Of a DNA stretch of 64,000 bases, positions 1-14,552 are shown piece after piece. Each line of letters starts with the position of its first letter. The first letter of the stretch is position 1. Below the pieces are notes generated by a model, which had not been told where the DNA came from, searched no databases, and saw only the letters and a list, made by a program, of their open reading frames with translations. Made by a program: the position numbers and the translations under genes. This DNA comes from an uncultured Verrucomicrobiota bacterium (GTDB taxonomy: Bacteria; Verrucomicrobiota; Verrucomicrobiia; Limisphaerales; AAA164-E04): positions 20,606 through 84,605 of the forward strand of contig CACEMW010000001.1 of the NCBI GenBank assembly GCA_902560705.1, given 5' to 3'.

Positions 1-1780
1 GCAGGGGTTTGATGCAATCGAGCCCACATTTTTCTGCAAGTGCCATGAATAATACCGAGAGTGTGATGGGTAAACCCTCCCGATCCTCGATCACCTTGTT
101 CAGATAACTGTTGGAGGCATGCTGGTAGTCGGTGAAACTGCCATGAAAACCATTCTCGACGAACAAGTAGGTAATGATGGATTCGACCTTTTGGTCCTGG
201 CTAAAAGATTCTTTCCAACGTTTTTGAATGGCTAGGACCATACGCTCAACCTCGTGGATATAGTCCGACGCATCCAAGGAGGGTTGATCATGTCTGGCGA
301 TCCACAGCGCTGCCTTCAAAAGATCGACTGAACCTTCAGGGCTCTGGAACATCTTCTGCAGAGCTTCGGCTATCGTTTCGCGGTGCGTTTGCTTGGCCTT
401 TTCTTTGAAAAAGTTGGCCCCTTTTTTGAGCTTTTCAGCCACCTGACGGTAATCTTCAGAAGTCCATTTTTCACCTCCCCCGCCAAAGGTTGGCAGTTTG
501 CCTGAATCCATCAGATAAGCTTCCAGAAGCGCCTTTTCACGTTCCTGCCGCAGTCCATCTGCATGCGTGACTTCAGATTCCGAAAATCCATCCTCGCGCA
601 CCCTGAACGACATGAATTCTGCTCCCGTTTGACGAAATTTCGTGATGCCCACCTGCCCGCTGACTAAATCCCGATCTTTGGATTGAATCACCAGAACATC
701 GTTGAGGTAACAGTCGATCGTGTCTGGTCGATGCACGACTCTGAGGTGATTCCAATCACCTTTGCGATAATGGGAAGAGCGAACCTGGTCCAAGATGGTC
801 CAGTCGTATACCGAAGGCCCCTCAAAGCGCGTGAGTCGCAACTGACTGTTGCTCGGATAGAAGCCATAGTGGGTGTCTCCACCATCGGAGCCAAAAATAA
901 TGCCAGCGGCACCGCTTTCATCCGTTAAACGGACCATGACTTCTACTTGATATGGTTGGTGTTCTGGCCTCTGAACCCAATGGCAATAAGCGCGGCCGCC
1001 AAACCCCTCCCCGACTCCATCCACTCTGACCCGGCCGACCTTGCTACTCCACATGGCAGGCTGGTCGGTCACCCAGCGAGTTTCATCCAGAGCACCCAAT
1101 CGCAACCACTGAGACCATGCCATACTGTTTGGGCGCTCAAGCAAGGGACGGATCCCATCAATGGGAGTGGCAAATCCCAAGTTCGGAGTCAGCGTACTTT
1201 TCATGTTCATCACTCCAATGACCTGGCCTTGGACATCGAAAAGGGGGCCTCCGCTGTTTCCCGGTTCAATCGGGATGGCAATTTGAATCATGGGGCCTTG
1301 GGTAAATTGACGTAATCCCGACAGGACTCCTCCCACCACACTTCTTTCAAGCCCCATTGGATTCCCCAGAGCCATGACTTTCTGACCTGTGGTTAGATTG
1401 GATGATTGCCCAAGCGGTAGCGGAGTCAGGTTTTCCCTCGATATTTTTAAGACAGCCAGATCCTGATTACGATCCCATGCCCAGATAGATTCGGGCTCGT
1501 ATTCTGCTCCGTCACTGAAAATTACCTTAACGCGACGGGCTTCCCCAATCACGTGCAGACTTGTAATGATGCGACCTTCCTGGTCCATCACAAACCCAGT
1601 TCCGACGCCCTGTTCACGCCCCTCACGGCCCATGTGCCGAATCGTGACAATGGCGTCCGAATATTCCTGGAAAAGCGTTGCCTCACTTAAGGGCTCGGAA
1701 TGACAAGCAAGGCATGGAAGGCAACATGCAACGAGCAAGCTGAAAATGCTAGAGTGAAGACCATTGCGAGTCACAGGCAT
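1..1780 (-). CDS. Secreted trypsin-like (S1C-type) serine protease fused to a ConA-like (DUF1080/LamG-type) beta-sandwich and a SirB1/YchA transglutaminase-like region. The 3' end runs off the window.
   Basis: Absent from the ORF track because there is no stop inside the window. Manual minus-strand translation from ATG 1780..1778 stays open to base 2. It gives an N-terminal signal/lipobox-like MPVTRNGLHSSIFSLLVACCLPCLAC and triad contexts TSLHVIG, NQDLAVLKI and EPGNSGGPLFD. Next comes AAGIIFGSDGGDTHYGF...GDWNHLRVVHRPDTIDCYLNDVLV...SGQVGI, then YLFVENGFHGSFTDYQHASNSYLNKVIEDREGLPITLSVLFMALAEKCGL. Confidence 0.7.
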   Translation of the reverse strand, partial: MPVTRNGLHSSIFSLLVACCLPCLACHSEPLSEATLFQEYSDAIVTIRHMGREGREQGVGTGFVMDQEGRIITSLHVIGEARRVKVIFSDGAEYEPESIWAWDRNQDLAVLKISRENLTPLPLGQSSNLTTGQKVMALGNPMGLERSVVGGVLSGLRQFTQGPMIQIAIPIEPGNSGGPLFDVQGQVIGVMNMKSTLTPNLGFATPIDGIRPLLERPNSMAWSQWLRLGALDETRWVTDQPAMWSSKVGRVRVDGVGEGFGGRAYCHWVQRPEHQPYQVEVMVRLTDESGAAGIIFGSDGGDTHYGFYPSNSQLRLTRFEGPSVYDWTILDQVRSSHYRKGDWNHLRVVHRPDTIDCYLNDVLVIQSKDRDLVSGQVGITKFRQTGAEFMSFRVREDGFSESEVTHADGLRQEREKALLEAYLMDSGKLPTFGGGGEKWTSEDYRQVAEKLKKGANFFKEKAKQTHRETIAEALQKMFQSPEGSVDLLKAALWIARHDQPSLDASDYIHEVERMVLAIQKRWKESFSQDQKVESIITYLFVENGFHGSFTDYQHASNSYLNKVIEDREGLPITLSVLFMALAEKCGLDCIKPL

Positions 1781-2453
1781 ACTGTGAGGGACCCGTTGGA
1801 AATGTGCAAGTATGTGAACGAGCGATTTCGAGTCGGTCAAGGAAGGTTTCCCTGTTGATGTAATGAGCTCCGAGAGATTGCGTCACCGGAGTGAGCATCT
1901 GAATGTCCACCAAGCGACATCCTCGATCACGAAGGGCCCGCAGGAGATGCAACAGTGCGACTTTCGACGCATTGCTGACTCGATAAAACATCGATTCGCC
2001 TGCAAACGCAGCTCCCACCTGCACTCCATACACCCCCCCCACCAGAGATCCCTCGTGCCAGCATTCCACGCTGTGTGCGCATCCCTGGTCATGCATCTGT
2101 TGATAAGCTCGAATGAACCGAGGGGTGATCCAACCCCCAGGTCTCGGCACCTTGGCACAAGCTTCAATCACTTCGTCAAATGCTGTATTAAAAGTAATAT
2201 CGAATCGTTGTTTTTTCAGAACCCGGCGCAGGCTTCGCGAGATGTGAATCTTGTTGAGCTCGAAGACTCCCCTCTGCTGGGGGCACCACCAGGTGATGGG
2301 ATCGTCCGTCCACGGAAAAATACCCTTTTCATAAGCCAGTTTGAGTCGTCGCACGGAGAGATCCCCCCCAACAGCCAATAGCCCTTCCTTGAGGTAGCGA
2401 TCATAACGGCGTGGTTCTGGGAACCAGATCTGTTTTTCTAGGAAGGCAACCAT
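1749..2453 (-). CDS. aat: Leucyl/phenylalanyl-tRNA--protein transferase
   Basis: Motifs GIFPW, WWCPQQRGV and FAGESMF, with an overall Aat layout. I prefer the start at ATG 2453..2451 (MVAFLEKQIWFPEP, 234 aa), which lies 1 nt after the upstream stop, over the track start at 2486. Confidence 0.9.
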   Translation of the reverse strand: MVAFLEKQIWFPEPRRYDRYLKEGLLAVGGDLSVRRLKLAYEKGIFPWTDDPITWWCPQQRGVFELNKIHISRSLRRVLKKQRFDITFNTAFDEVIEACAKVPRPGGWITPRFIRAYQQMHDQGCAHSVECWHEGSLVGGVYGVQVGAAFAGESMFYRVSNASKVALLHLLRALRDRGCRLVDIQMLTPVTQSLGAHYINRETFLDRLEIARSHTCTFPTGPSQYACDSQWSSL

Positions 2454-2454
2454 G

Positions 2455-2967
2455 TCATGGAGTGATCTCATCTCCAGAAGGATCACCGGGTTTACCTGAA
2501 CCGTTTAGGGCCTGTAGAAGCACCGATTGAAACATGCCACACAAACCCATCGACCATACACTTGGCAACTGGGCTTCGGTCCACTTTTCACTTTTGAGGT
2601 CCGCTTCATTCGGACATCCCAGAAGCATCCAGTGACTGATTCGAAGATCATTAAATAGTTGGAGCATCCACTCGACATCATGGCCACTGAGTCGAAGCAT
2701 CTTTTGGGAAGTATCTTCCGGGGAAGAGGTGCTCCCTGCTTCCAACCAAGTGGCCGCACGTTTCACCAGACTTTGTCGATGTGCCGCCTGCATTTCCCGC
2801 AACCAGGTGTTGGATTCTTCAATCACGGGATCCTTATTTGAATGGCTTGGGGGTGACGGTCTATCCAGCCCTGAAGCATACTGGGCAAGAAGGGCGGAAA
2901 AGATACGCCATTCCCGCTCATCAAGTAAAACACACAGCTCACCGTCATCAAGACGCCTTGCCTTCAT
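2455..2967 (-). CDS. Hypothetical protein (170 aa) encoded between clpS and aat
   Basis: The ATG 2967..2965 overlaps the clpS TGA 2966..2964 (ATGA). Its stop at 2457..2455 lies 1 nt before the aat ATG. It begins MKARRLDDGELCVLLDEREWRIFSALLAQY. I recognise no motif. Confidence 0.6.
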   Translation of the reverse strand: MKARRLDDGELCVLLDEREWRIFSALLAQYASGLDRPSPPSHSNKDPVIEESNTWLREMQAAHRQSLVKRAATWLEAGSTSSPEDTSQKMLRLSGHDVEWMLQLFNDLRISHWMLLGCPNEADLKSEKWTEAQLPSVWSMGLCGMFQSVLLQALNGSGKPGDPSGDEITP

Positions 2968-3275
2968 GCGTCCTTCTCCAAGGTGGCTTGCAGGTGATAG
3001 CACTGGAGCTGGTGCACGTAGTGCTCCGCCTTTTCAAGGCTCTCTCGCATGAGGATGCTTTTACCCTGCTCATGAACTTCCCGCATATGCCGATGGGCGC
3101 GCTCCCGCCTCCACCCAAATACTTTTTGAAAAACGTGCGTCACGTAATCCATGAGATTGACAGGATCATCCCAACAGATCACCAAGTAGGCATCTTCCGG
3201 TTTCAAGGAAATGCATGGGTCCGACGCGGGGCCGGGTCCTGGAAGCACCTGAGGAGTATCACTGCTCAATATCAC
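2964..3275 (-). CDS. clpS: ATP-dependent Clp protease adaptor ClpS
   Basis: WDDPVNLMDYVTHVFQKVFGW...A...M..VH..G is the typical ClpS core. 103 aa. Confidence 0.9.
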   Translation of the reverse strand: MILSSDTPQVLPGPGPASDPCISLKPEDAYLVICWDDPVNLMDYVTHVFQKVFGWRRERAHRHMREVHEQGKSILMRESLEKAEHYVHQLQCYHLQATLEKDA

Positions 3276-3387
3276 GTAATAAGATTATAGAAAACACCCT
3301 CAGAAAGTGCAACTGCATGCTTGGTGGGCTTTTCGGCTGGTCGAAGCCATCAAGCGTTGCCTCGATCCCATTGAACTCAAAGCATCT

Positions 3388-4659
3388 CTAGAGGTGTTCA
3401 AAAACATTCAACACCCCTTCGCACATGGACTGGGCGGAGCCAGTCCGAATGACACTCTCTCGCCCCTCCTTGGCTATGGCCAGCAAACGGGGTCGGTCCA
3501 TCAACAAGCATCTGATGGACGAGGAGAGATCTTGGGCGCTCAGACCCTCTGATAGAATGCCGCCTCCGGTTTGTGCAATGATCTCGGGAAAGGCAGCATG
3601 CGGCGGTTGCACGACAGGCACCCCCGAAGCCAGGGACTCGAGCACATACAAGCCGAAAGACTCGCCATAAAGGGCTGGCACTGAAAAGAGGGTTAACTTC
3701 GAGAAAAAATCCAGTTTCTCCTCACGGCTGAGATTGGGATGCCAGGTAACATCGTGACTCAAGCCAGCATGCTTTAATGTCTCTTTCAAGCTCTCCACAA
3801 AAGCGACGTCACCGGGGCCACATCCACCTCCTATCATCAGTTTAAGATGCTTCGTTGAATCTTGCTTTTTAAGATCGCGAAAAGCGTCCACGAGGGTATC
3901 GAGACCTTTCTGCGGGCACATTCTCGCAAAGTATCCCAGCACAGGTGGATGGGCGGGAAGAGAACTAATCTGGTAACCCTCTAGAGGAATCCCGTTGGGG
4001 ACAACATGGATACGGTTTTCAACCATCTTCAGCCGATTCTGCATGGTGCGACCGTAATACTGGCTTGGGGCAATCCATGCGTCCACCTCGGCAGCCAGCC
4101 TGGACAGTTCATCCCAAGCTTCGGTTCGGTAGGGTTCACGGAGGGCATCCAGAAAGGTATCCTCGCCTTGCAAGGTGCAAACCACCTTCACCCCGAGACC
4201 ACGTTGAATGGCAGGGCACATACCAAGAAGCAAGGCGTTGGATAGGCAAACGACATCCGGTTTACCATGCTGCTTCAGCCAGTCAACCAGCGCATTTAAC
4301 TCACCCGCTTGACGGCCATCCAGCCCCCTCAACATGGAAACGGTGAGGGCTCCCGTATCCTCAGGGCGTGTCTTGGCCGCTTTTCCAGCCACCTTGCCAA
4401 GTAGGCTGCGGCGGCTAAGCCAGCGGGTCCAAGTTGAGGGAAGCCACTGAGCATACTGACGCAAAAAAACGCCGATACCACCATAGAAAATAGGGGTTTC
4501 CTTGCTTTGATCCTCGTCTTCCAGGGTCAGGGGCAAGTAAAGAGGCACCATGAGAACATCATGTCCCTGGCTCCTTAAACCCTTTACCAAGGCATTGTCT
4601 CGGAAGCACCCTCCGCAGTACATGCCACCGGCACCGGGCGTCAATTGGACAATTTTCAT
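3388..4659 (-). CDS. Glycosyltransferase family 4 (GT-B fold)
   Basis: EX7E motif (YGESFGLYVLESLASGVPVV). I prefer the start MKIVQLTPGAGGMYCGGC at ATG 4659..4657, which overlaps the upstream stop (ATGA at 4656..4659). Confidence 0.8.
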   Translation of the reverse strand: MKIVQLTPGAGGMYCGGCFRDNALVKGLRSQGHDVLMVPLYLPLTLEDEDQSKETPIFYGGIGVFLRQYAQWLPSTWTRWLSRRSLLGKVAGKAAKTRPEDTGALTVSMLRGLDGRQAGELNALVDWLKQHGKPDVVCLSNALLLGMCPAIQRGLGVKVVCTLQGEDTFLDALREPYRTEAWDELSRLAAEVDAWIAPSQYYGRTMQNRLKMVENRIHVVPNGIPLEGYQISSLPAHPPVLGYFARMCPQKGLDTLVDAFRDLKKQDSTKHLKLMIGGGCGPGDVAFVESLKETLKHAGLSHDVTWHPNLSREEKLDFFSKLTLFSVPALYGESFGLYVLESLASGVPVVQPPHAAFPEIIAQTGGGILSEGLSAQDLSSSIRCLLMDRPRLLAIAKEGRESVIRTGSAQSMCEGVLNVFEHL

Positions 4660-5939
4660 GCAGGCACCGCCGTTTGGGCCTGCTCTGTGAGGGGTTCTCC
4701 ATGAGGCAAATCCTTGGGAATTGAGCAGAACTCCTGAATCTTCTCCCACAAATTAGAGAAATCCTTATTCACGTCGCCGGAAAGACAATCGGTCACGTCG
4801 CCACCCAATTCGGGGTATTTGGCAATCAAATCCTTGAAGCTGAAATCTGGATCGTAAAAGGCATAAACCAACTTGCGCATGTTCTCGATTCCTTCGCGCA
4901 TGACACGACTGTATTCCTGAAACTTTTCAGGCCCCAGGTCGCCGTCTCGAAGGCACTGGACAATGGTCTCCCCGGCCATCACTCCGCTTTTCAATGCCAA
5001 CAAGAGCCCTGATGAAAAGACCGGGTCAAGGAAACCAAACGCATCCCCAATAAGGCAAAGACCCTTTTCAGCACAGTATCGTGAGCGGAACGTGTACTCG
5101 GAGGTAGCCCGATAAGGCCCCGCGGGTTTCCCTTCACGCAAATAGTGCTCTATCCATTTGTTTTGGGAAATTTCACGCCTAAAAATGGCTTCGGGCTGCT
5201 TGACACCATCGCGCGTCAAGTAAGAGGCCTCTGCCACAATTCCCACGGATGTCATCCCATCATGCTGCGGAATAAACCAAAACCAACCTTTCTCAGGAAC
5301 GTATGCGACGGTAGTCGCTCCTTCGTCGATGCCTTCGTCACGCTTGGCGTCCTTGTAGTAAGTCCACACGGCAACTTTATTGAGGTGGGGATCCCTTTCA
5401 CGCCAACGGTTCTTGGCGACCGTAAAGGCTTCCTTGCCAGAGGCATCGATAGTCATCAATGCACGCACATGACTCTCGCGCCCATCTCGGTCCCTAGTTA
5501 GAACGCCACAAACTTCTCCTCGAGAGTTGCGCATCAGATCCACCACATGTGTTTCCTCCCACACTTCGGCGCCAAGATCAAGCGCGTGGTCAAGCATCAT
5601 CTGGTCAAACTCGGAGCGCAGGACTTGCCATGTTTGCGCGACGTTAGAATCATACCTCGTGGAGAAGTAAAAGGGCTGTGAAGCTTGGCCGTTGGGCATC
5701 ACGAACTGCACGCTGTGCTTTTTGACAAAATGAGAGGCCCGCATTTTCTCTATTAGTCCCAATCGTTTAAGGGGAAAGTAAGTGAATGGGATCATGGACT
5801 CACCTACTTTGTAACGTGGGAATGCCTCGCGCTCCAAAACAAGCACACGATGGCCAGCCTCAGCCAGAATGCAGGCAGCGCTGCAGCCCGCTGGACCCGC
5901 GCCGATGACCACTACCTCGACTTGTGTTGTCTCATTCAT
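4656..5939 (-). CDS. FAD-dependent oxidoreductase of the flavin-dependent halogenase-like family
   Basis: GAGPAGCSAA (GxGxxG), FPRYKVGESMIP, GWFWFIP (WxWxIP) and GDAFGFLDPVFSSGLLLA. Confidence 0.75.
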   Translation of the reverse strand: MNETTQVEVVVIGAGPAGCSAACILAEAGHRVLVLEREAFPRYKVGESMIPFTYFPLKRLGLIEKMRASHFVKKHSVQFVMPNGQASQPFYFSTRYDSNVAQTWQVLRSEFDQMMLDHALDLGAEVWEETHVVDLMRNSRGEVCGVLTRDRDGRESHVRALMTIDASGKEAFTVAKNRWRERDPHLNKVAVWTYYKDAKRDEGIDEGATTVAYVPEKGWFWFIPQHDGMTSVGIVAEASYLTRDGVKQPEAIFRREISQNKWIEHYLREGKPAGPYRATSEYTFRSRYCAEKGLCLIGDAFGFLDPVFSSGLLLALKSGVMAGETIVQCLRDGDLGPEKFQEYSRVMREGIENMRKLVYAFYDPDFSFKDLIAKYPELGGDVTDCLSGDVNKDFSNLWEKIQEFCSIPKDLPHGEPLTEQAQTAVPA

Positions 5940-5973
5940 GTTTTCATAGATAACACCCTTTGATCATTTTGCA

Positions 5974-6540
5974 TCAATAGGATGGGAGAATTTCTACAAT
6001 TTCTGCAATCACCCGCTCATCTGCCAGAAACAACTGATTGCGGCGACCGTAAAGCCAAGGCGCGTCAGTGGCACCCAGCACTTTTTGAATGTGCGCATCG
6101 GGCCGCATCCGAAAAAAACCCACAGGCTGGCTGCGGTGCTGGACCTTTTGGTCATTGAGAATGAATCCTAGAGGCAACTGAGCTTCGGTGATGAGACGCT
6201 GGGTTGGCTCAGGAAGGGCGTTTAAACGGATTTGGATGCCACCCCATTCTATTTTTCTCTGTGAATGTTTGAGCTTCAGAACCACTTCACGTGAATAATG
6301 ATCCCCCACTCTTTGCTCATGGTACACTGTGATGAGAATGTCATCGCCGTAGTGAGCCGATAGGGTGGGAGTCATGTCCTTCTGGTGGACCAGAAGTGGG
6401 TGATAGGGTTCCGGCACAGCATCCGGAGCGAGAGGTTCTGGTTCAACCCATGCCAAAAAGCGTCGTTGATAAAACTGCTTCAGTGGAAACCAGAAATCCT
6501 GCTTGATTGGAGTTGGACATTCCATTTGATAATTAGCCAC
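5974..6540 (-). CDS. Chorismate pyruvate-lyase (UbiC/DUF98)-like protein
   Basis: The layout matches UbiC as I recall it: DMTPTLSAHYG, YSREVVLKL, LPLGFIL and LYGRRNQLFL...EIVEILP. GTG start at 6540, directly abutting the upstream stop at 6541. Confidence 0.6.
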   Translation of the reverse strand: MANYQMECPTPIKQDFWFPLKQFYQRRFLAWVEPEPLAPDAVPEPYHPLLVHQKDMTPTLSAHYGDDILITVYHEQRVGDHYSREVVLKLKHSQRKIEWGGIQIRLNALPEPTQRLITEAQLPLGFILNDQKVQHRSQPVGFFRMRPDAHIQKVLGATDAPWLYGRRNQLFLADERVIAEIVEILPSY

Positions 6541-7890
6541 TCAAACCATACGTTTTGTCAGGTGTTCGGGGAGAAAGAACTCATGCAGCAAGCGGTCGAC
6601 CTGCAATAGCCCGTCGCGATTGAGATTGATGTGATCATCCTCCAATCGCAGATAGCCCCAATCCATCAGACGCCTGAGTGGCTCATGAAATTGCTTTTGA
6701 ACATCCACTCCAAATTTTTCAGTAAAGTAGCTACTTCGGGTATGTCCCAGTTTGAGCTGAAGAATGAATTCCCTGATCAAACGCTCCAGATGGTTCGGAG
6801 TGTAGGCACGAAAGACGGGAAGTACACCTTGGTTTACCCGTTCGACATAAGGGTCAAAGTCGGCATGATTTTGATAATGGGTGCCACCGATATGACCGAA
6901 AGATGCCACCCCGAGCGAGAGTAAATCTGCCCCCTCCCAAAGGCGATCCCGATAGACGAAGCGGGTTTGCTCCTTGTCCTTGACAGCCGTGTAGGCACTG
7001 GTGATGGCGTATCCTGCCTGTTCGAATTTCTCAAAGGCCTCGCGAACCCATCTTCGCTTGGTTTCCCAATCTGCCACAGGTGCGCTTAGTTGACCCTGCT
7101 CCTTCATTTGACGGTAAATCGTCGTATTGAACGGAACTTCCATTTGATAAATCGTCACACTGTCGGGGGCCAGCGAAAGGGTTTTCTCAATCGCCATCTG
7201 CCACTTCTCTTCGGTTTCCTCCAGCATTCCCGCAATCAAATCAATATTGATTTGAGGAAAGCCAAGGTCTTGGGCGCATCGATAAGCTTTTTCGATCTCC
7301 TTGGAACGGTGTGCGCGACCGTTCGTCTCGAGAATGTGATCGTCAAAATGCTCCACACCAAGACTCAATCGAGTGACGCCAATATCCCGGATAGCGCGAA
7401 GCTTTTTATCGGTCAATGTTCCCGGTTCACACTCAAAGGCTACTTCCTCTGCTTCATCCCAAGGAAGCAGGGCCTTCATGCGATCTGTCAGCATTGTAAG
7501 CTGGGGCACGGACAAATAGCTGGGCGTACCGCCTCCAAAGTAAATGAATTTGGGAAGCCTTCCACCGATGAATGGCTTTTGGGAATAAGTCTTGAGTTCC
7601 TCGATGGCAGCATCGAGGTAGCCGTTGATCGCTGTGGCATTCTTATCCGTGTAGACCTTGAAGTAGCAGAAGTGGCAGCGCTTACGACAAAATGGGATAT
7701 GAAAATACAGCCCCAGGGGTGTTTCCGGAAGCGGAGAACGTTCCAGAGCTTGCTGATATTGATCGACAAACGACGGGTTCCAGAATGAGTAAGGGGGATA
7801 ATTTGAAACAAAATAATTCCCGGCCTGCGTCTGCTGCTTGCCGGTTTGCTCCACTTTAGCTGTAGTTTGGGGTTCCGCAGATGGATTCAT
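6541..7890 (-). CDS. HemN-like radical SAM protein (coproporphyrinogen III oxidase family / possible class C methyltransferase)
   Basis: LYFHIPFCRKRCHFCYF (CxxxCxxC), IYFGGGTPS, and an N-terminal SNYPPYSFW segment analogous to the HemN TSYPTA. The fourth Cys of the HemN CxxxCxxCxC motif is absent. Confidence 0.85.
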   Translation of the reverse strand: MNPSAEPQTTAKVEQTGKQQTQAGNYFVSNYPPYSFWNPSFVDQYQQALERSPLPETPLGLYFHIPFCRKRCHFCYFKVYTDKNATAINGYLDAAIEELKTYSQKPFIGGRLPKFIYFGGGTPSYLSVPQLTMLTDRMKALLPWDEAEEVAFECEPGTLTDKKLRAIRDIGVTRLSLGVEHFDDHILETNGRAHRSKEIEKAYRCAQDLGFPQINIDLIAGMLEETEEKWQMAIEKTLSLAPDSVTIYQMEVPFNTTIYRQMKEQGQLSAPVADWETKRRWVREAFEKFEQAGYAITSAYTAVKDKEQTRFVYRDRLWEGADLLSLGVASFGHIGGTHYQNHADFDPYVERVNQGVLPVFRAYTPNHLERLIREFILQLKLGHTRSSYFTEKFGVDVQKQFHEPLRRLMDWGYLRLEDDHINLNRDGLLQVDRLLHEFFLPEHLTKRMV

Positions 7891-7927: not shown

Positions 7928-9109
7928 TCAGGAGCTTCTACTGTCTTTGAAACCGTAAACATGACCATCTTCGTCTCCGATGACCACCCATCCTTCTACG
8001 ACAGCGGGTGATCCGGTCAGAGGCTGACCAAGATCGATGGACTGAATTTCTTCTCCGTCTTCAAGCTTCAGTCGATAAAGCCGACCATCTTCAGACCCGA
8101 AAAGCACTTCACGCCCCCCAAGAATCACTGCAGAAGAGTCGACCTTCCCGCGGGTTGAAAATACCCACTTTTTGCTTCCCGTAAAACGATCCAAACAATG
8201 AAGCTGACGATCGCGGCCTCCAATGAGAACCGATGATTCGTAAATGGCAGGAGAAGAGTAGTATGGAAAATTTCGATTACGGTATTTCCAGCTAAGCGCG
8301 CCTTTCTCCAAATCAAAACACAGAAACTCGCTCTCGTAGTGCCCAACATAAACCAAGGCACCCTGCATGGCGGCGGACCCAGCGATATAGGCTCCAGCGT
8401 TAATTTCCTTGGTTTTCGACCCATTTTTCAAGTCAATCACATGGAGCAGGGCATCACAGCCCCCGAAGACCGTCTTGCCTTGCGAAATGGCGGGGCTGCC
8501 GTTGATGTAATTCCCCGTTTCGTAATCCCAAACCTTAGAACCGTCATTGCTGCGTATGCAATGAAGACGAAAGTCATAGCTTCCGACAATGATCCAGGGG
8601 TGCTCCTGATCGGGAAGTTGATACCAATTCGGTGCTCCAAGAATTTGGTCGTCTGTTTGATATTTCCATCGCACGCTCCCATCTTGAATCGAAAGACGGT
8701 ACAGTGCTCCATCTGCAGATCCGACAAAAACGCCATCCCCCAGAACCAAAGGCGAGCTTTCCACGGCACCTTCTGTTTTGAAGGCCCATTTCTTTTCCCC
8801 GGTTTCTAAATCGAGGGCGAACAAATGACCGTCATCACAGCCAACGAAGACCTGCCTACCAACGATGGCTGCAGAAGACTTGATCCCCCACTCTGCCTTG
8901 AAAACCCATGCCTCTTTTAGGTTGCCTTCGAGGGACGCTGGGCTCACTCCACTCAGCGACGGTTGTCCCCGATACATGGGCCATGAGGTTTGTGTCGCTA
9001 CCCCTGCGGTTTCAGCCACAACGAAATTCCGGGAAGCAGCCAAAACGACTGCAAGGGTGAGGCCCAGGCAGAAATGCGAGAGCAGTGGTATAAAATGATT
9101 TAGGCCCAT
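7928..9109 (-). CDS. PQQ-like beta-propeller repeat protein (BamB-like fold), secreted
   Basis: Repeated ...G.VFVG..DG.LYAL/..DG...W.. blades. I prefer the start MGLNHFIPLLSHFCLGLTLAVVLAA (signal peptide) at ATG 9109..9107. The track start at 9529 adds 140 aa with no coding character that I can see. Confidence 0.8.
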   Translation of the reverse strand: MGLNHFIPLLSHFCLGLTLAVVLAASRNFVVAETAGVATQTSWPMYRGQPSLSGVSPASLEGNLKEAWVFKAEWGIKSSAAIVGRQVFVGCDDGHLFALDLETGEKKWAFKTEGAVESSPLVLGDGVFVGSADGALYRLSIQDGSVRWKYQTDDQILGAPNWYQLPDQEHPWIIVGSYDFRLHCIRSNDGSKVWDYETGNYINGSPAISQGKTVFGGCDALLHVIDLKNGSKTKEINAGAYIAGSAAMQGALVYVGHYESEFLCFDLEKGALSWKYRNRNFPYYSSPAIYESSVLIGGRDRQLHCLDRFTGSKKWVFSTRGKVDSSAVILGGREVLFGSEDGRLYRLKLEDGEEIQSIDLGQPLTGSPAVVEGWVVIGDEDGHVYGFKDSRSS

Positions 9110-9126
9110 GACAATACTGTATTTAA

Positions 9127-9148
9127 AATAATACCTACACGTATTATT
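9127..9148. promoter_or_regulatory. Perfect 8-bp inverted repeat AATAATAC-N6-GTATTATT in a divergent intergenic region
   Basis: Read directly. It lies between the beta-propeller gene start (9109, minus) and the DUF971 start (9275, plus). Confidence 0.25.
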
Positions 9149-9274
9149 GCAATGGAAGAAATTACGCACCTCTTGCGGCAAGATCGATTCTTGGTATTCA
9201 ACAGGATACTTCATAACATATACAGAGCCTTTCATTGCCTTGATTGTGACCTGAGGGCATGCCATGGTTTGAGG

Positions 9275-9598
9275 ATGTTGCCCCTTAGGCCGGAAAAACT
9301 GGATTTGATCGGAAATGAAGTGGCTATCCGCTGGAATGACGGAAGCGAAGATTTTTTCTCCATGGAGGTTCTCCGGGCTGCTTCGCCAAGCGCTGAAAAC
9401 CAGGGCGAACCGGATCTCTTCGGGCACATGCACGGAGGCAGTGAGCAAACGGAGTTTCCCGGCGTGCGGGTGATTCATTGGCAGCCTGTGGGCGGTTATG
9501 CCATTCGCTTCGACTTCAGTGACGGACACCGCACAGGATTGTACAGTTTTGAGTATCTCAAGCGATTGGCTGTGGCCACAAGTGAGGCCTCTGAATAG
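9275..9598 (+). CDS. DUF971 (gamma-butyrobetaine hydroxylase N-terminal-like) domain protein
   Basis: VAIRWNDGSE...LRAASPSAENQGE...IRFDFSDGHRTGLYSFEYLKRL. I prefer the start at ATG 9275 (MLPLRPEKL). Confidence 0.7.
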   Translation: MLPLRPEKLDLIGNEVAIRWNDGSEDFFSMEVLRAASPSAENQGEPDLFGHMHGGSEQTEFPGVRVIHWQPVGGYAIRFDFSDGHRTGLYSFEYLKRLAVATSEASE

Positions 9599-9626
9599 AG
9601 TTCACGCTGCCCTGAAGCACCTTGAC

Positions 9627-11288
9627 TCAGATAGGGTCATACTTTTCACGAAACCTTTGGGCAATTGGCACCCTTCTGCCCATCCCAAACGCACGTGAGG
9701 TCACCTTCAACCCGGGAGCCGCCTGTCGACGCTTGTATTCATTGAGATCCATCAGCCTGATAATTTTTTCCACCAATGAGCGGTCATGCCCTTTGGCCAC
9801 AATGCTGTCGATCGACTGATGTTCCACCAGGTAATCCTCCAGTATAGCATCCAAGGTAGCGTAATCAGGCAAACTATCCTGATCCTTCTGGTCGTGGCGG
9901 AGTTCGGCTGAAGGAGGCTTTTCAATCGTTTCCCATGGAATGATTTCTTCCGCACGGTTGATCCATCGTGAAAGGCGGTAAACCATGGTCTTGGGGCAAT
10001 CACTGAGCACTGCCAGACCGCCACACATGTCTCCGTAGAGCGTGCAATAGCCCACAGCCAATTCACTTTTGTTGCCCGTGGTCAGCAAAAGGGATCCGAA
10101 TTTGTTGGAGAGTGCCATCAAGGTCGTGCCTCGAATCCTCGCCTGCAGGTTTTCCTCAGTCACATCCTCAGCCTTGTCTGCAAAGAGATGACTAAGGGAA
10201 CCCTTGATGACTTCAAACGCCGGTTCAATAGGAATCTCTTCGTAACGAATCCCCAATATTTCAGCTAATTTCGAGGCATCAGTGAGACTTCCTTTCGAGG
10301 AAAATCGAGTTGGCATGGCAACCCCCATGACATGTTCAGGCCCCAGCGCTTCCACCGCGATGACTGCCGTCAATGCCGAATCGATGCCACCGGAAAGCCC
10401 AAGCAGAACCGACTTAAATCCGCATTTATGGACATAGTCGCGTATCCCCAGACCCAATGCCTTGATAATCTGGCCTTCTTCGTCAAGGACATCCGGGCCA
10501 TCGGGTGGGGATGTCGTGGCTTGTTCTTGGGTATCCACCCATAGATGTTGAGCTTCAAATAACGGGGATCTGGCAACCATCCCCCTATTGGGATCCACAA
10601 ACATGCTACTACCATCGAAAATCAGCTCATCATTCCCTCCGACCATATTGACATAAAGAACCGGTAACCCTAGTTCACTGCTTTGTGCTTCAAACAATCG
10701 CTGGCGCATGGCTACCTTTCCAACCTGCCAGGGTGAAGCCGCAATATTGATGAGAAGACTCGCGCCCTGATCTTTAAGTTTCTCCAGGGGATTGTGACCG
10801 TAGTGCGACTCGTGAATCGCATAAGGATGGCTCCAGGCGTCCTCACAAATGGTCAATCCAAGGTGTTCCCCCATGAAGGCAATCGGAGTATTATCTCTGG
10901 CCGGTTCGAAATACCGATCTTCTTCAAAAACGTCATACGTTGGGAGACAGGTCTTATAACGCTTGGCGATTATTCTGCCTTTTTGCAGCAATACCGCCGC
11001 ATTGTAAAGCGGACGTCCGGCTCCACTTGCATTTCGATCAATGGTTCCCACGATTAGTCCCACAGACCCCGTTTGTTCGGCTATGGATTGAAGGTGGTTA
11101 AGGCTTTCATCGAGGAAATACGACTTGAGCAGCAAATCGCGCGGAGGATAGCCTGTTAAAACCATTTCGGGACAAATAACCAGATCCGCTCCTGCGCGTA
11201 TACCTTGGCCGTAGGCCTCCATGATTTTTGCCATATTACCGCCAAAATCACCAATGGTGGGGTTTACTTGAGCCAGTAAGCACTTCAC
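9627..11288 (-). CDS. nadE: Glutamine-dependent NAD+ synthetase
   Basis: N-terminal CN-hydrolase domain (LAQVNPTIGDF, ICPEM, ICEDAW) and C-terminal NAD synthase domain (LGLSGGIDSA). Probable GTG start at 11288 (VKCLLAQVNP). The track start at 11309 is TTG. Confidence 0.9.
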   Translation of the reverse strand: MKCLLAQVNPTIGDFGGNMAKIMEAYGQGIRAGADLVICPEMVLTGYPPRDLLLKSYFLDESLNHLQSIAEQTGSVGLIVGTIDRNASGAGRPLYNAAVLLQKGRIIAKRYKTCLPTYDVFEEDRYFEPARDNTPIAFMGEHLGLTICEDAWSHPYAIHESHYGHNPLEKLKDQGASLLINIAASPWQVGKVAMRQRLFEAQSSELGLPVLYVNMVGGNDELIFDGSSMFVDPNRGMVARSPLFEAQHLWVDTQEQATTSPPDGPDVLDEEGQIIKALGLGIRDYVHKCGFKSVLLGLSGGIDSALTAVIAVEALGPEHVMGVAMPTRFSSKGSLTDASKLAEILGIRYEEIPIEPAFEVIKGSLSHLFADKAEDVTEENLQARIRGTTLMALSNKFGSLLLTTGNKSELAVGYCTLYGDMCGGLAVLSDCPKTMVYRLSRWINRAEEIIPWETIEKPPSAELRHDQKDQDSLPDYATLDAILEDYLVEHQSIDSIVAKGHDRSLVEKIIRLMDLNEYKRRQAAPGLKVTSRAFGMGRRVPIAQRFREKYDPI

Positions 11289-11322
11289 ACAGCCATTCTC
11301 CTTATTCAAAATTAAACGTTGC

Positions 11323-11865
11323 CTAGCGTCCTACCAGGACTTGCTTAAGGGGTCCTTTTTCGCTGACGATCATGGTTCCTACTTGGATTCCCTGTTTCTT
11401 GAACCAACCTTGAGGCATCTCCAGAACGAACTGAACGTTGGCAGATTGGGCTGGAATGCTGGATGCATCGAGTGGCTTCATGTCGTGAAGTTCCAGGATG
11501 CGGCCGTCTGGGCCAATGTAGGCACAGGTAAGAGGCAGCAAAGTGTTTTTCATGTAGAAGGAGGTTTGATGAGGCGCGTTGAAAACGAAGAGCATACCTT
11601 CGTTCTCCCCCATATGTTCGCGGAACATCATGCCGGTGGCGATTTCCCTGACACTTCTGGCCAACTCAGCTGTGACGGTTTTATCAGCCAGGAACAATCG
11701 CATCGTGGGTAACTTAGGCTGGGCATGGTCCAGGTGAAGCACCGATGCCGCTTCTGCGACTTTGGCGTAAGGCTTCTGCTCTTCTCGCGCTGTTTGCTCC
11801 AAACCGCAGCCCAGGAGGGGCGGAAAGCTCAGAATAGCAAATAGACATAGCCTGTTGATTTGCAT
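11323..11865 (-). CDS. DUF192 domain lipoprotein
   Basis: GMMFR...GMLFVF...FYMKNTLLPL, with lipobox LLGC. An alternative start lies at 11880. Confidence 0.8.
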   Translation of the reverse strand: MQINRLCLFAILSFPPLLGCGLEQTAREEQKPYAKVAEAASVLHLDHAQPKLPTMRLFLADKTVTAELARSVREIATGMMFREHMGENEGMLFVFNAPHQTSFYMKNTLLPLTCAYIGPDGRILELHDMKPLDASSIPAQSANVQFVLEMPQGWFKKQGIQVGTMIVSEKGPLKQVLVGR

Positions 11866-11948
11866 GTCGCCATTGATCATTCAAACAACAGAATTTGTCA
11901 ATGGATCCCTGTTGGCAGGCCCTTATTTGAGAGGAAGTTCCCCCGCCC

Positions 11949-14372
11949 TCACGGAGTCCTAGTGACCACACCCAAACTGAGGTTGGCGAAAGAGCCGCTC
12001 CCGCTGTGAATCCACTCACCTTGTCGGACCATGAATTCCGTCCCGGAGGCGACCTCCTGAGGAATGCCGATGGATGTAGCTTCCGAATCCATGGAAAGAA
12101 AATGTTCAAACACTTCACTACCGGGCGGCTTTTGGTAAAGGTGAATCTTTTCAGGGTGATCGAGTTGAGGCCCGCCCCACGCTAGATATCTCTGACCTTC
12201 TGAAAAAAGAATCTTAACATCATCCAAAGGAGGGGTCACGTGACACCTGAGAGAAGGGTCTCCCAAAAAAGCCATGGCCCTGGAAGCACCCTTTTCCGAA
12301 CCATTCACTGAGGCCAACAAGACCTCACCCAGGCAAGCACCTAGGCCAAGACGCCCCAGATTCCAAGGCCCTGCCATGGTACTGAAGACCCCAAGAGGTC
12401 CATCGTTGGATGAGAGACATGCTTTCATGAAACCATCGGTCTGATTCCAATCGGCATGCCACGATGAATAAAGTGCAAGAAAACCAACATCTGCAGCCAT
12501 AGTGGAACCCTTAAAATCCTTGGTTTCAATCAGGCCTTCCCCAGCTTGCAAAGATTGGATACCCCCATAACCACTGACGAACCCCCAAAGCGATCGGTTC
12601 CCTTTGGTAAAAATTCTCCCGCTTCTCAGCCTGCCGTAGTCGCAACCATAAGTCGCCCAACCAGAAGCGGCAGCGGTAGAAATGATTTTTTGGTTCATGA
12701 TGGGTGACAAGGTGGCATCCACGATGGTTTCCATCGCAAAGTTCAGGCGCTTATTCCGGTAAAGAATATTTTTCCCGAGATACTCCTTCAAAAGCTTGAT
12801 TTCCAGGTTCGACTGTTTCTTATCTGAACGCACCAAACGACTTTCGAGCAGCGATGGCATATTGGCAAAATCAACACGGCCGACGCCCACCTCCAAAAGA
12901 GTCGGCGTTAAGTCCTGATCGAATTTACCATCCCCAGGTAGGTTGCTGTTAAGTCGCGAGGTCTGATTCATGTGCGATACGGAATGATCCGTCCAAACCC
13001 CATCAAGGTCTCCGTAATAAATGTCGCAAGGCCAAGCGCCACGGTGATCATCCTGAGGACGTGTATGACCATCCAGTGCCCTAAAGCCTGAATAAGGAAC
13101 CGGCACGTGCCCAAGCAAAAGCAGTAGGCGTGTTTGATGAATCTGATGACTCAGGTGGGATTGCACAAGACCCTTGACGCGTGAAATAAGCGGAGGATTG
13201 CGTGACCAGTCACGGTCATCATGCCTGGGGGATGGGGCTACCAAAACCTGCCAGCCTTCGCGCTCTAGTGTCCGGGAATAAAGCTCCAATTCGACTTGAA
13301 GCTTCTGTGCCAAAGTTTCATCGACCAGTATCAGGATGGTTCCGGGGTGCAAATTGCCAGGCAAGGCATAGCCCACAGCCAGATCTCTGAGACGCTCTTT
13401 TCCGGAACGAGACTGGACCTGATATTGATAGATCTGGCCTTTTTGCAAAGCCGCAGCAAAATCTTGATAATAAAACCCCTTCAATTCGGTTTTCAGCAAG
13501 GTCCAGCGGCTCTGGCCTTGAGGACGCCTGCGAATGGCAAAGGGGCCATCCAACGTCGGTGGCCAGCTTAAATGAATAGAGGACTGCTTGTCATCGACTC
13601 GAGCACTCATCGACCACTGACTGGATTCCAATTCCACCTGTTTGAGCGGAAAATTGAACCATTGAACCTCATCCAGGATGCCCCCGACAGGCTGGTTTCC
13701 CTTGGGGGCGTTCCCAATAGAAAGACCTGTGTCTGAAAGTGCTCGGGCGGGGGGGAGAAACGAAACCCCTTGTCCGGGGCCATGGGTGACCCCGTCCACG
13801 TGAACCCATGTTCCCTCAGGAGCATAACTAACAGCTATTTCCACCCACCGATCCTTTTCAAACTGAATCGGTGCCGCGATCAGAGTCTCTCCTCGCGTGG
13901 TCGATTGGATTCCCAGCTGCAACTGCTTTCCGGTGGGATCCATGGTGATGCCCCAATAGCCTGTCATATCAGGCGGGACCTTCCACTGCCCAAAACCCGC
14001 CAGAGTGGCATGCCGGCCAGGCCCCTGCCCACTTGTCCAATCGGGTTTGAAAAAGCATTTGAAAGTACCCCGAAGAAACGCGGCAGTTGGGGCCGTGGTC
14101 TGTGTCGCTTGAAGCAAGATGCCATCCATGGCTTCGCGAGAGACCAACCCCTGACCGGTCATTCCGGAGGTATGAAGATTCGCAAGCGTTCCTTTAGTTA
14201 CATCGATCCATGTTTGTTCCCGCATGGGTGCGGGTTGAATCAATGTATCAAATCCGAGGTGCAGCGTGGCGCCTGGCATTCCAGCCGTTTCCTGGCTGGA
14301 GACCGAAGTCATCCATGATAGGAAACATCCCAGGCAAAACCACACCATTGTGCGTGACTTCCAATCACTCAT
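11949..14372 (-). CDS. Large secreted protein: LamG/ConA-like domain, FN3-like domain and a C-terminal region reminiscent of gingipain (C25)-type folds
   Basis: Signal peptide MVWFCLGCFLSWMTSVSS. LamG-like WVEIAVSYAPEGTWVHVDGV. FN3-like SIHLSWPP...YQYQVQS. ILILVDETLAQKLQVELELYSRTLEREGWQV and LLLLGHVPVPYSG. The C25 assignment is weak. Confidence 0.6.
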   Translation of the reverse strand: MSDWKSRTMVWFCLGCFLSWMTSVSSQETAGMPGATLHLGFDTLIQPAPMREQTWIDVTKGTLANLHTSGMTGQGLVSREAMDGILLQATQTTAPTAAFLRGTFKCFFKPDWTSGQGPGRHATLAGFGQWKVPPDMTGYWGITMDPTGKQLQLGIQSTTRGETLIAAPIQFEKDRWVEIAVSYAPEGTWVHVDGVTHGPGQGVSFLPPARALSDTGLSIGNAPKGNQPVGGILDEVQWFNFPLKQVELESSQWSMSARVDDKQSSIHLSWPPTLDGPFAIRRRPQGQSRWTLLKTELKGFYYQDFAAALQKGQIYQYQVQSRSGKERLRDLAVGYALPGNLHPGTILILVDETLAQKLQVELELYSRTLEREGWQVLVAPSPRHDDRDWSRNPPLISRVKGLVQSHLSHQIHQTRLLLLLGHVPVPYSGFRALDGHTRPQDDHRGAWPCDIYYGDLDGVWTDHSVSHMNQTSRLNSNLPGDGKFDQDLTPTLLEVGVGRVDFANMPSLLESRLVRSDKKQSNLEIKLLKEYLGKNILYRNKRLNFAMETIVDATLSPIMNQKIISTAAASGWATYGCDYGRLRSGRIFTKGNRSLWGFVSGYGGIQSLQAGEGLIETKDFKGSTMAADVGFLALYSSWHADWNQTDGFMKACLSSNDGPLGVFSTMAGPWNLGRLGLGACLGEVLLASVNGSEKGASRAMAFLGDPSLRCHVTPPLDDVKILFSEGQRYLAWGGPQLDHPEKIHLYQKPPGSEVFEHFLSMDSEATSIGIPQEVASGTEFMVRQGEWIHSGSGSFANLSLGVVTRTP

Positions 14373-14552
14373 GCCGTGGACGGTCTTTCTGCTGTGAAGG
14401 CAAGTTGCTCATTTCAAAAGTGTGACGCTTTTCTAACTGCTGTTAAAGTCTATCGGCAGAAATATGCGGTTTCTGAACTCAATCTATCAAACGTCAAAAA
14501 AATCTCAATCGGTATTGAATTGCCACCGGAACCGTGCAAAGTCTAAATAATC

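Follow-up and report, generated by a model that had tools for sequence, protein, structure and literature searches.

Why are a HemN-like radical S-adenosylmethionine (SAM) protein, a UbiC-like protein, a putative flavin-dependent halogenase and a GT4 glycosyltransferase encoded side by side in an uncultured Verrucomicrobiota bacterium? The question is raised by a 64-kb stretch of contig CACEMW010000001.1 (64,000 nucleotides, hereafter the window), in which a reading of the bare letters, here called the original prediction, had described these four genes as a minimal pathway for a modified hydroxybenzoate-derived metabolite. Gene fusions and a gene order kept across phyla show that the radical SAM, UbiC-like and halogenase proteins, together with a thioesterase encoded in related loci, work together, being coupled rather than merely adjacent. 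As to what they make, we assign a probability of about 0.5 to the combined view that the window genes from 9109 to 3388 form one operon, a shortened copy of a larger conserved system, and that this operon builds a tailored 4-hydroxybenzoate unit with a halogenated product. The genes of the block, and the one immediately upstream of it, are as follows.

7928..9109, minus strand: secreted beta-propeller protein, 393 amino acids (aa) when the ATG at 9109 is taken as start; the block opens with this gene
7890..6541, minus strand: radical SAM protein, 449 aa
6540..5974, minus strand: UbiC-like protein, 188 aa (183 aa from an alternative start at 6525)
5939..4656, minus strand: predicted flavin-dependent halogenase, 427 aa
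4659..3388, minus strand: GT4 protein, 423 aa counted from its ATG
9152..9598, plus strand: GBBH-like_N/DUF971 gene, divergent, upstream of the beta-propeller gene

In the sequence itself, the close packing described by the original prediction holds in every detail: the four genes are co-directional, the TGA of the radical SAM gene (6543..6541) directly abuts the GTG of the UbiC-like gene at 6540 with 0 nt between them, a gap of 34 nt separates the UbiC-like stop (5974) from the ATG of the halogenase gene (5939), and the halogenase stop and the GT4 start overlap in the ATGA at 4659..4656. The UbiC-like gene has a second possible start, an ATG 15 nt downstream of the GTG, at which its closest homologue (P0001) begins, and the GT4 frame was extended to a GTG at 4749 in the mechanical list of open reading frames (ORFs). 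The unit begins one gene earlier than had been described, with a co-directional beta-propeller gene that ends 37 nt before the radical SAM start. At 533 aa the mechanical ORF makes this gene too long, and the 140 codons at its beginning overlap the DUF971 gene on the opposite strand; the ATG at 9109 is the most likely start, chosen because of that opposite-strand gene and of a 393-aa orthologue in L001. The closest genome locus belongs to a metagenome-assembled genome (MAG) of Pedosphaera sp., with 90-96% protein identity to the window proteins, which supports the Verrucomicrobiota origin of the window. A promoter and terminator scan returned sites no commoner than in shuffled sequence and was uninformative on the limits of the operon, and an Rfam search for riboswitches and other RNA leaders, covering the block of the window and six related loci, gave no match.

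When one genome per species was scanned, a relative of the UbiC-like protein turned up in at least 511 species-level genomes. Synteny was counted in the best 80 loci, nearly all of which are labelled Verrucomicrobiota (Pedosphaera, Limisphaerales), with the following result.

Radical SAM gene, upstream of the UbiC-like gene: 68 of 73-77 assessable loci
Halogenase gene, downstream of the UbiC-like gene: 58 of 67-74 assessable loci
Beta-propeller gene, upstream of the radical SAM and UbiC-like genes: 56 of 67-71 assessable loci, median gap 82 nt
GT4 gene, downstream of the halogenase gene: 27 of 53-64 assessable loci, median gap 16 nt

Median intergenic gaps within the block are 16-82 nt across loci, and the flanking genes vary between genomes. 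The radical SAM, UbiC-like, halogenase and GT4 genes occur all together in 25 loci, and the median identity to the window proteins is 66% for the radical SAM protein, 62% for the halogenase, 52% for the propeller, 51% for GT4 and 44% for the UbiC-like protein. Implausible MAG names (Klebsiella pneumoniae, Bifidobacterium sp., Chitinophaga pinensis, Akkermansia muciniphila) are attached to L021, L032, L046, L052, L053, L064, L070 and L080; these bins are probably mislabelled, their loci resembling other Verrucomicrobiota loci.

A larger version of the operon is seen in 8-12 of the 80 loci, where GT4 is followed by five more genes on the same strand, in this order.

First after GT4: 4HBT/YbgC-type thioesterase
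Second: membrane protein, 173-189 aa
Third: PaaK-like adenylating enzyme or aryl ligase
Fourth: ATP-binding cassette (ABC) ATPase
Fifth: FtsX permease, 1089-1173 aa

The PaaK-like ligase reaches about 200 bits on PaaK models, under their cutoff, and 96-115 bits on the FlxY model, and BagE/FevW also match. A minimal pathway of four genes, as the original prediction had it, is consequently not what the comparison delivers: the unit starts with the beta-propeller gene, five more genes are present elsewhere, and GT4 itself is found in about half of the loci.

The most direct sign of cooperation comes from protein fusions. A profile search of 1.84 billion representative proteins returned 1890 representatives of the UbiC-like family at the 50%-identity level, and three members of odd length proved to be fusions.

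P0284, 600 aa: UbiC-like protein fused to halogenase
P0378, 613 aa: radical SAM protein fused to UbiC-like protein
P0349, 324 aa: UbiC-like protein fused to 4HBT thioesterase

Each of the three occurs on several independent contigs. A search with P0284 found full-length UbiC-like/halogenase fusions in 22 clusters (582-655 aa), carrying the NCBI labels Lentisphaeraceae, Phycisphaeraceae, Planctomycetota and Verrucomicrobiota/Chthoniobacteraceae, which are MAG labels and in some cases perhaps wrong. The radical SAM/UbiC-like fusion is represented by two sequences (P0378 and P0393) on three contigs, and the UbiC-like/thioesterase fusion by one sequence on three contigs. The loci of these fusions, and two further loci from distant genomes, are arranged as follows.

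L090/L091: radical SAM gene, fusion gene, then glycosyltransferase gene
L092/L093: radical SAM/UbiC-like fusion gene, with a thioesterase gene and a distantly related propeller gene on the opposite strand
L094 (MAG labelled Bryobacteraceae, Acidobacteriota): radical SAM, UbiC-like, halogenase, thioesterase and PaaK-like ligase genes, in this order
L096 (8-Mb genome): radical SAM, halogenase and ligase genes
L097: all ten genes, arranged as in the Verrucomicrobiota loci, except that UbiC-like protein and halogenase are encoded by one fusion gene; 37-64% identity
L098: propeller, radical SAM, fusion and propeller genes

GT4 orthologues with 44-48% identity follow the halogenase in the fusion-type loci L090 and L097. 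The L094 proteins are 61% (radical SAM), 38% (UbiC-like) and 55% (halogenase) identical to those of the window, and no propeller gene lies beside that block. Taken together, the fusions and the cross-phylum gene order indicate that the radical SAM, UbiC-like, halogenase and thioesterase proteins cooperate, and the UbiC-like block does not look like a sporadic secondary-metabolite cluster. The coupling proposed by the original prediction thus holds well beyond close relatives, with the same order in dozens of species-level genomes and three kinds of fusion.

Several of these loci carry additional genes. A right-handed beta-helix protein of about 750 aa (Beta_helix, weak GH141_M) is encoded between the radical SAM and UbiC-like genes, or just ahead of a UbiC-like gene that stands alone, in one subclade with ten such loci (L010, L017, L029, L030, L035, L041, L048, L055, L063, L073), and in L017, L029, L030, L035, L041, L048, L055, L063 and L073 it sits about 2.2 kb upstream of the UbiC-like gene. 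PIN-domain toxin genes of mobile appearance occupy the same junction in the group of L027, L037, L052, L057 and L072, as do an AAA_15/AAA_21 ATPase gene and its partner in L081 (6040..7814); the radical SAM/UbiC-like junction seems to tolerate insertions. Just after the halogenase gene of L081, in convergent orientation, lie genes for PTPS, LuxC-like and LuxE-like (acyl-protein synthetase) proteins (11960..14841), a trio that, in the gene tables inspected, is confined to L081 and the short duplicate of this locus, L082. In L094 an S8 peptidase gene, a B12-binding radical SAM gene and several small family-less ORFs precede the block on the same strand (2241..7816) and look like a separate peptide-modification cluster. 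In the flanks of the L098 block (1..7655 and 10848..12131), further PQQ_2 beta-propeller genes lie on both sides, and genes for a major facilitator superfamily transporter and a truncated AMP-binding protein stand before the block on one strand, together with aldehyde dehydrogenase and iron alcohol dehydrogenase genes.

The identity of the UbiC-like protein bears most heavily on the chemistry. It matched no curated family, so structure prediction and a fold search were used; the sequence-profile search of the PDB returned 2nwi alone (E 0.023). The AlphaFold model has a confidence score (pLDDT) of 92, and Foldseek aligned it best with the DUF98 protein 2nwi (E 1e-7, template-modelling (TM) score 0.74), followed by GntR effector or UTRA domains, and with E. 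coli UbiC (1fw9/1g81/1g1b) at E ~1e-4 and a TM score of 0.55-0.61. The predicted structure thus has the chorismate-lyase/UTRA fold. In an alignment of 24 sequences the family is well conserved, with M56, R84, L124-G125 and E183 invariant, and in both local and global profile alignments these residues fall on M34, R76, L114-G and E155 of E. coli UbiC, of which M34, R76, L114 and E155 are the product-binding and catalytic residues. The E. coli UbiC sequence used in these alignments was verified to be identical to 1g1b. Despite weak pairwise statistics, given below, the residue correspondence holds along the entire length. Many homologues are named chorismate-pyruvate lyase in the JGI annotation and others "hypothetical protein". 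The assignment to the chorismate-lyase type made by the original prediction is therefore upheld by fold and profile alignment, the active-site positions being kept; the other family assignments likewise hold.

The flavoenzyme is predicted to be a short-type flavin-dependent halogenase without a C-terminal substrate lid. It scores 113.3 bits on Pfam Trp_halogenase (PF04820; cutoff 21), and of the ten PDB entries that match it best, nine are halogenases (E 1e-53 to 2e-29), among them 8zop, CmlS, CndH, PltA, 5buk (Mpy16-type), ChlB4, Bmp2 and RadH; the Bmp2 structures 5bva/5bul match at E ~1e-39. The tenth is an unnamed flavoprotein (3nix), and the next match after these ten is FixC (3.5e-17). 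All halogenase hallmarks are kept, as the original prediction would lead one to expect: the GxGxxG motif reads GAGPAG (residues 13-18), WxWxIP is contained in GWFWFIP (217-223), and K74 aligns with the catalytic lysine K71 of CmlS. These three positions are at least 95% conserved in 43 halogenase orthologues, and the motifs are intact in the L094 and L096 copies too. With 218 bits the protein stays far from the cutoff of the CmlS equivalog NF033113 (900 bits), so that it is a relative of CmlS and not an orthologue, and it groups by sequence with the two-component halogenases CmlS/CndH/PltA/Bmp2. The family has thousands of metagenomic members, and its current annotation is tryptophan 7-halogenase.

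The radical SAM protein has the Pfam domains Radical_SAM and HemN_C, an architecture that fits class C methyltransferases, yet one that does not separate them from HemN. Its placement was based on curated-model scores and on pairwise comparison with E. coli HemN, E. coli HemW and NocN. It lies below every curated cutoff: 192.6 bits against 324.95 for hemN (TIGR00538), 186.9 against 400 for ChuW/HutW (TIGR04107), 165.3 against 205.4 for HemW (TIGR00539) and 173 against 380 for STM4012, with HemZ likewise not reached; the L094 orthologue, at 201.3 bits, is also under the hemN cutoff. Identity is 25% over 418 residues to E. coli HemN and 28% over 279 residues to E. coli HemW, and the class C methyltransferase NocN, as a PDB entry, matches at E 4e-26. 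The protein retains CxxxCxxC (CRKRCHFCYF), GGGTP and counterparts of HemN E145, R184 and D209; of the CxxxCxxCxC motif of HemN three cysteines are retained and the fourth is replaced, and RNFQGY (F310/Q311 in HemN) is replaced by FVYRDR, then LW. From these comparisons we conclude that it represents a separate HemN-like subfamily that is neither HemN, HemW nor ChuW, and the public annotation of its homologues is coproporphyrinogen III oxidase. In L062 the halogenase gene is followed closely, on the opposite strand, by a second, distant HemN-like gene (9040..10248) whose product shares 24% identity with that of the window, so that at least this genome holds another HemN-family paralogue.

The GT4 protein is predicted to be a retaining glycosyltransferase, with Pfam Glycos_transf_1 (87.6 bits) and Glyco_transf_4 (61.7 bits) both above cutoff; its best NCBIfam matches are weak (MshA, 65 bits against a cutoff of 462, and BshA) and no equivalog is reached. 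An N-terminal motif with two cysteines (CGxC), TPGxGxMYCGxCxRDNALV, is conserved and is kept in the L097 orthologue (10878..12221). The beta-propeller is of the PQQ_2/BamB-like kind (Beta-prop_ACSF4 194 bits, PQQ_2 131 bits), and its orthologues of about 390 aa have a Sec-type signal peptide and no lipobox. The possibility that it is the organism's own BamB, unrelated to the block, was considered and rejected on account of the missing lipobox and of its position, which is kept in fusion-type lineages. In some loci the propeller and radical SAM genes show translational coupling, and the propeller's membership in the system is likely but not certain.

How could these proteins act together? The chorismate-lyase fold with conserved sites, an aryl-acid-type ligase, a hot-dog enzyme of the 4-hydroxybenzoyl-coenzyme A (CoA)-thioesterase type and a halogenase of the phenol/pyrrole type fit a small aromatic acid derived from chorismate, and the operon product is probably a halogenated 4-hydroxybenzoate derivative. 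In the proposed pathway, the UbiC-like protein would cleave chorismate to 4-hydroxybenzoate and pyruvate, as its fold and conserved active-site positions suggest. The halogenase, judged by its intact motifs, would then chlorinate or brominate the phenol ring ortho to the hydroxyl group, using free reduced flavin supplied by an unlinked reductase. The radical SAM enzyme may perform radical chemistry on the same aromatic unit, class-C-type C-methylation being the most likely reaction; the basis for this is family resemblance and the fusion to a UbiC-like domain. GT4 would attach a sugar. In the full version of the operon, the PaaK-like ligase and the 4HBT-type thioesterase could handle the aryl acid as adenylate or thioester, and the small membrane protein and the ABC/FtsX transporter could carry the product across the cytoplasmic membrane, beyond which the secreted beta-propeller may encounter it. 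Because it is fused to three different partners, the UbiC-like protein may be the hub that hands its tightly bound product to the tailoring enzymes. Short flavin halogenases usually act on substrates bound to a carrier, and product release by E. coli UbiC is slow; the short halogenase, this slow release and the three fusions suggest that the UbiC-like protein itself presents the substrate. The modified hydroxybenzoate metabolite of the original prediction thus gains from the ligase and thioesterase found elsewhere, which fit an aromatic-acid pathway, and its halogenation, methylation and glycosylation keep the standing of inferences.

Several observations weigh against this reading. At the level of the protein families, the UbiC-like protein matched no Pfam or NCBIfam family at E ≤ 0.01, so that no curated chorismate-lyase model was reached, and its pairwise profile comparison with E. 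coli UbiC is weak (E 0.0018, probability 6-15%); the radical SAM sequence is as near to HemN as to a class C methyltransferase, and its role in the pathway is a guess. At the level of gene content, the UbiC-like gene stands alone in eight loci, L092/L093 have no halogenase gene within 10 kb of the fusion gene, L096 has no UbiC-like gene, and neither a flavin reductase nor a carrier protein is encoded in the block. The thioesterase, PaaK-like ligase, small membrane protein and ABC/FtsX genes were searched for across the 64-kb window and are absent, so that the pathway here may be incomplete or different. Finally, an identity of 55-61% between the window and L094 would be unusual for secondary metabolism and may point to an unforeseen role.

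Among the rival explanations, the one that survives best, though we consider it unlikely, takes the flavoenzyme as a hydroxylase or other oxidase and the product as a non-halogenated aromatic, which could be a redox compound or a cofactor resembling a quinone and would be exported for use by the periplasmic beta-propeller. Pyrroloquinoline quinone (PQQ) serves periplasmic propeller dehydrogenases in this way, and a secreted PQQ-repeat propeller gene leads the block in most loci and is present in L097 and L098 too; the full operon includes an exporter, the flavoenzyme has weaker matches to the flavin monooxygenase maturases QhpG, LodB and GoxB (87-131 bits, QhpG at 131) and to UbiH-type hydroxylases, and the identity between the window and L094 suits a cofactor better than an antibiotic. 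The propeller, however, has the size of BamB and not of a PQQ dehydrogenase, none lies beside the L094 block, and the one beside the L092 fusion gene is only distantly related to that of the window. The lysine and the WxWxIP motif that mark halogenases, conserved as described above even in L094 and L096, and the nine halogenases among the ten best solved relatives also speak against an enzyme that merely oxidises its substrate.

It is considerably less probable that the genes serve to break down or salvage aromatic or halo-aromatic acids. The UbiC-like protein would then bind the acid instead of producing it, and the ligase and thioesterase would act as in the 4-chlorobenzoate pathway. Such a system could account for the core of PaaK-like CoA ligase and 4HBT-type thioesterase in L094, L097 and the extended Verrucomicrobiota loci, and the chorismate-lyase fold is common to small-molecule-binding UTRA domains. 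Yet no dehalogenase, ring-reducing or ring-cleaving gene was found in any inspected locus, flavin-dependent halogenases are biosynthetic enzymes, the residues aligned with the lyase active site of UbiC are invariant, and a glycosyltransferase and an exporter suit synthesis more than breakdown. About as improbable, or slightly more so, is a role in protein or peptide maturation, with the flavoenzyme and the radical SAM enzyme modifying an aromatic residue, perhaps of the secreted beta-propeller, in the manner of QhpG/QhpD and LodB, which build protein-derived quinone cofactors. The QhpG, LodB and GoxB matches just mentioned and the translational coupling of the propeller and radical SAM genes are in line with it, and HemN-like enzymes and halogenases are both known from peptide natural-product pathways; but the block has no conserved precursor peptide, protease or SPASM-type enzyme, its partners are small-molecule enzymes (chorismate-lyase fold, aryl-acid ligase, acyl-CoA thioesterase, GT4), and the fusions of the UbiC-like protein to halogenase and radical SAM protein point to a small aromatic substrate.

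The fallback of the original prediction was that a genuine haem-pathway HemN and a quinone-pathway UbiC merely sit side by side. Widened to a set of unrelated housekeeping neighbours that includes a flavoprotein and a cell-wall glycosyltransferase, it agrees with the public names coproporphyrinogen III oxidase and chorismate-pyruvate lyase and with the housekeeping genes around the block, but is extremely unlikely given a radical SAM protein under all curated HemN, HemW, HemZ and ChuW cutoffs and without RNFQGY and the fourth cysteine, the UbiC-like fusions to a radical SAM protein in some organisms and to a halogenase in 22 clusters, and a gene order kept across MAGs of different phylum labels while the flanks change. 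Nor do the window or the loci contain genes for haem or quinone synthesis (UbiA, UbiD/X). Menaquinone (MenK/MenJ-like) and ubiquinone readings were likewise rejected, with no prenyltransferase or decarboxylase gene nearby and a similarity to halogenases that far exceeds that to MenJ or UbiH.

Beyond the block, downstream of GT4 and on the minus strand, ClpS (2964..3275), a DUF2017-like ORF (2455..3003) and the Aat Leu/Phe-tRNA protein transferase (1749..2486) form an overlapping, co-directional trio that looks like an N-degron module; of the other genomes, only L001 and L002, the two closest ones, have this trio behind the block. A NadE gene lies upstream of the block, and the remaining annotated part of the window consists of housekeeping genes.

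If a halogenated, tailored 4-hydroxybenzoate unit is indeed what the operon makes, its distribution deserves attention. Flavin halogenases are normally scattered in secondary metabolism, and a halogenase operon conserved across hundreds of species and several phylum-level MAG labels is unexpected. Verrucomicrobiota and Acidobacteriota are among the most abundant soil and freshwater phyla, and, should the enzyme truly halogenate, the operon would be a testable candidate source of natural organochlorine or organobromine in soils and waters, whose producers are the subject of a long-standing question. The three kinds of fusion suggest the chorismate-lyase fold as a substrate-presenting hub, and the annotations "coproporphyrinogen III oxidase" and "tryptophan 7-halogenase" are probably misleading. 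A bolder extension, which we regard as speculative and improbable, is that the operon, far from being an occasional antibiotic cluster, is ancient and largely vertically kept in Verrucomicrobiota, Lentisphaerota, Planctomycetota and Acidobacteriota, four mostly uncultured lineages, and makes a halogenated aryl glycoconjugate or cofactor required in the envelope or periplasm. The UbiC-like protein would then be a non-covalent carrier presenting 4-hydroxybenzoate in turn to the radical SAM enzyme, the lid-less halogenase and the thioesterase, and the secreted beta-propeller might have the product as its partner. Were this extension true, it would be the first 'primary-like' role of bacterial enzymatic halogenation, and a source of natural organohalogens that is microbial and widespread in soil and water would have been named.

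How does the operon compare with systems already described? The bmp cluster of marine Pseudoalteromonas, to which the original prediction appealed, encodes the chorismate lyase Bmp6, the single-component flavin brominase/decarboxylase Bmp5 and the pyrrole halogenase Bmp2. It shares with the window a chorismate-lyase-type gene next to a flavin halogenase gene, which would imply halogenation of 4-hydroxybenzoate, so that the pairing of hydroxybenzoate and halogenase in the Bmp6/Bmp5 logic stands. The analogy to Bmp5 itself is imprecise: the window flavoenzyme groups with two-component halogenases including Bmp2, its nearest relatives being CmlS/CndH/PltA/Bmp2, and Bmp5 is set apart from these by description. 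The bmp cluster is also not known to contain a HemN-like radical SAM protein, GT4, an aryl ligase/thioesterase pair or such an exporter, and it is sporadic in a few marine strains rather than conserved across orders and phyla.

Closer in host range is a gene pair from Planctomycetales strain 10988, likewise of the PVC superphylum, in which adjacent genes for the chorismate-lyase-like BaaA and the flavin halogenase BaaB are associated with 3,5-dibromo-p-anisic acid; they are proposed, without genetic validation, to give dibrominated 4-hydroxybenzoate (Panter et al., bioRxiv 10.1101/723874). BaaB is about 44% similar to Bmp5, and radical SAM, GT4, ligase or thioesterase genes are not reported at that locus (bioRxiv 10.1101/723874). 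Compared by description, BaaB probably belongs to a different halogenase class than the window flavoenzyme. The BaaA/BaaB proposal was the only related item found in the searchable literature, where no description of the operon was met, and nothing relevant was found for 8ZOP, the best PDB match of the flavoenzyme. The radical SAM protein invites comparison with the class C enzymes (NocN, NosN, TbtI, MenK/MqnK, ChuW), with which it shares the HemN-like architecture and, probably, a pathway with an aromatic substrate, but it differs from them in lying under every curated cutoff and equally distant from E. coli HemN and HemW. We found no earlier description of a HemN-like radical SAM protein paired with a chorismate-lyase fold, and among the class C enzymes described so far none, to our knowledge, has a protein of that fold as fusion or pairing partner.

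Two further systems resemble the full operon in the range of its enzymes. The head-group tailoring of aryl polyenes, flexirubin and xanthomonadin likewise draws on hydroxybenzoate supply, an aryl-acid ligase and a thioesterase of the hot-dog type, along with halogenation and methylation of the ring, glycosyl transfer and export to the envelope. Genes for a ketosynthase, an acyl carrier protein, a ketoreductase or a dehydratase were found neither in the window nor in any inspected locus, and without type II polyketide synthase genes the block itself cannot build a polyene chain. The bmp, BaaA/BaaB and ambigol systems, the closest to the operon, all pair a chorismate lyase with a flavin halogenase, and their descriptions have in common that none includes a HemN-like enzyme, the fusions, the set of GT4, exporter and propeller, or an equal breadth of conservation. 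The ambigol pathway of Fischerella ambigua differs from the operon here, which encodes neither a carrier protein nor a cytochrome P450 and whose ligase is PaaK-like, and it is not known to have a counterpart of the radical SAM enzyme, GT4, the exporter or the beta-propeller. Its logic is nevertheless close to the one proposed: the chorismate lyase Ab5 yields 4-hydroxybenzoate, which is activated as a thioester with the adenylating enzyme Ab6 and the carrier protein Ab8 and then chlorinated by the short flavin halogenase Ab10, a sequence mirrored in the full operon by its ligase, thioesterase and halogenase.

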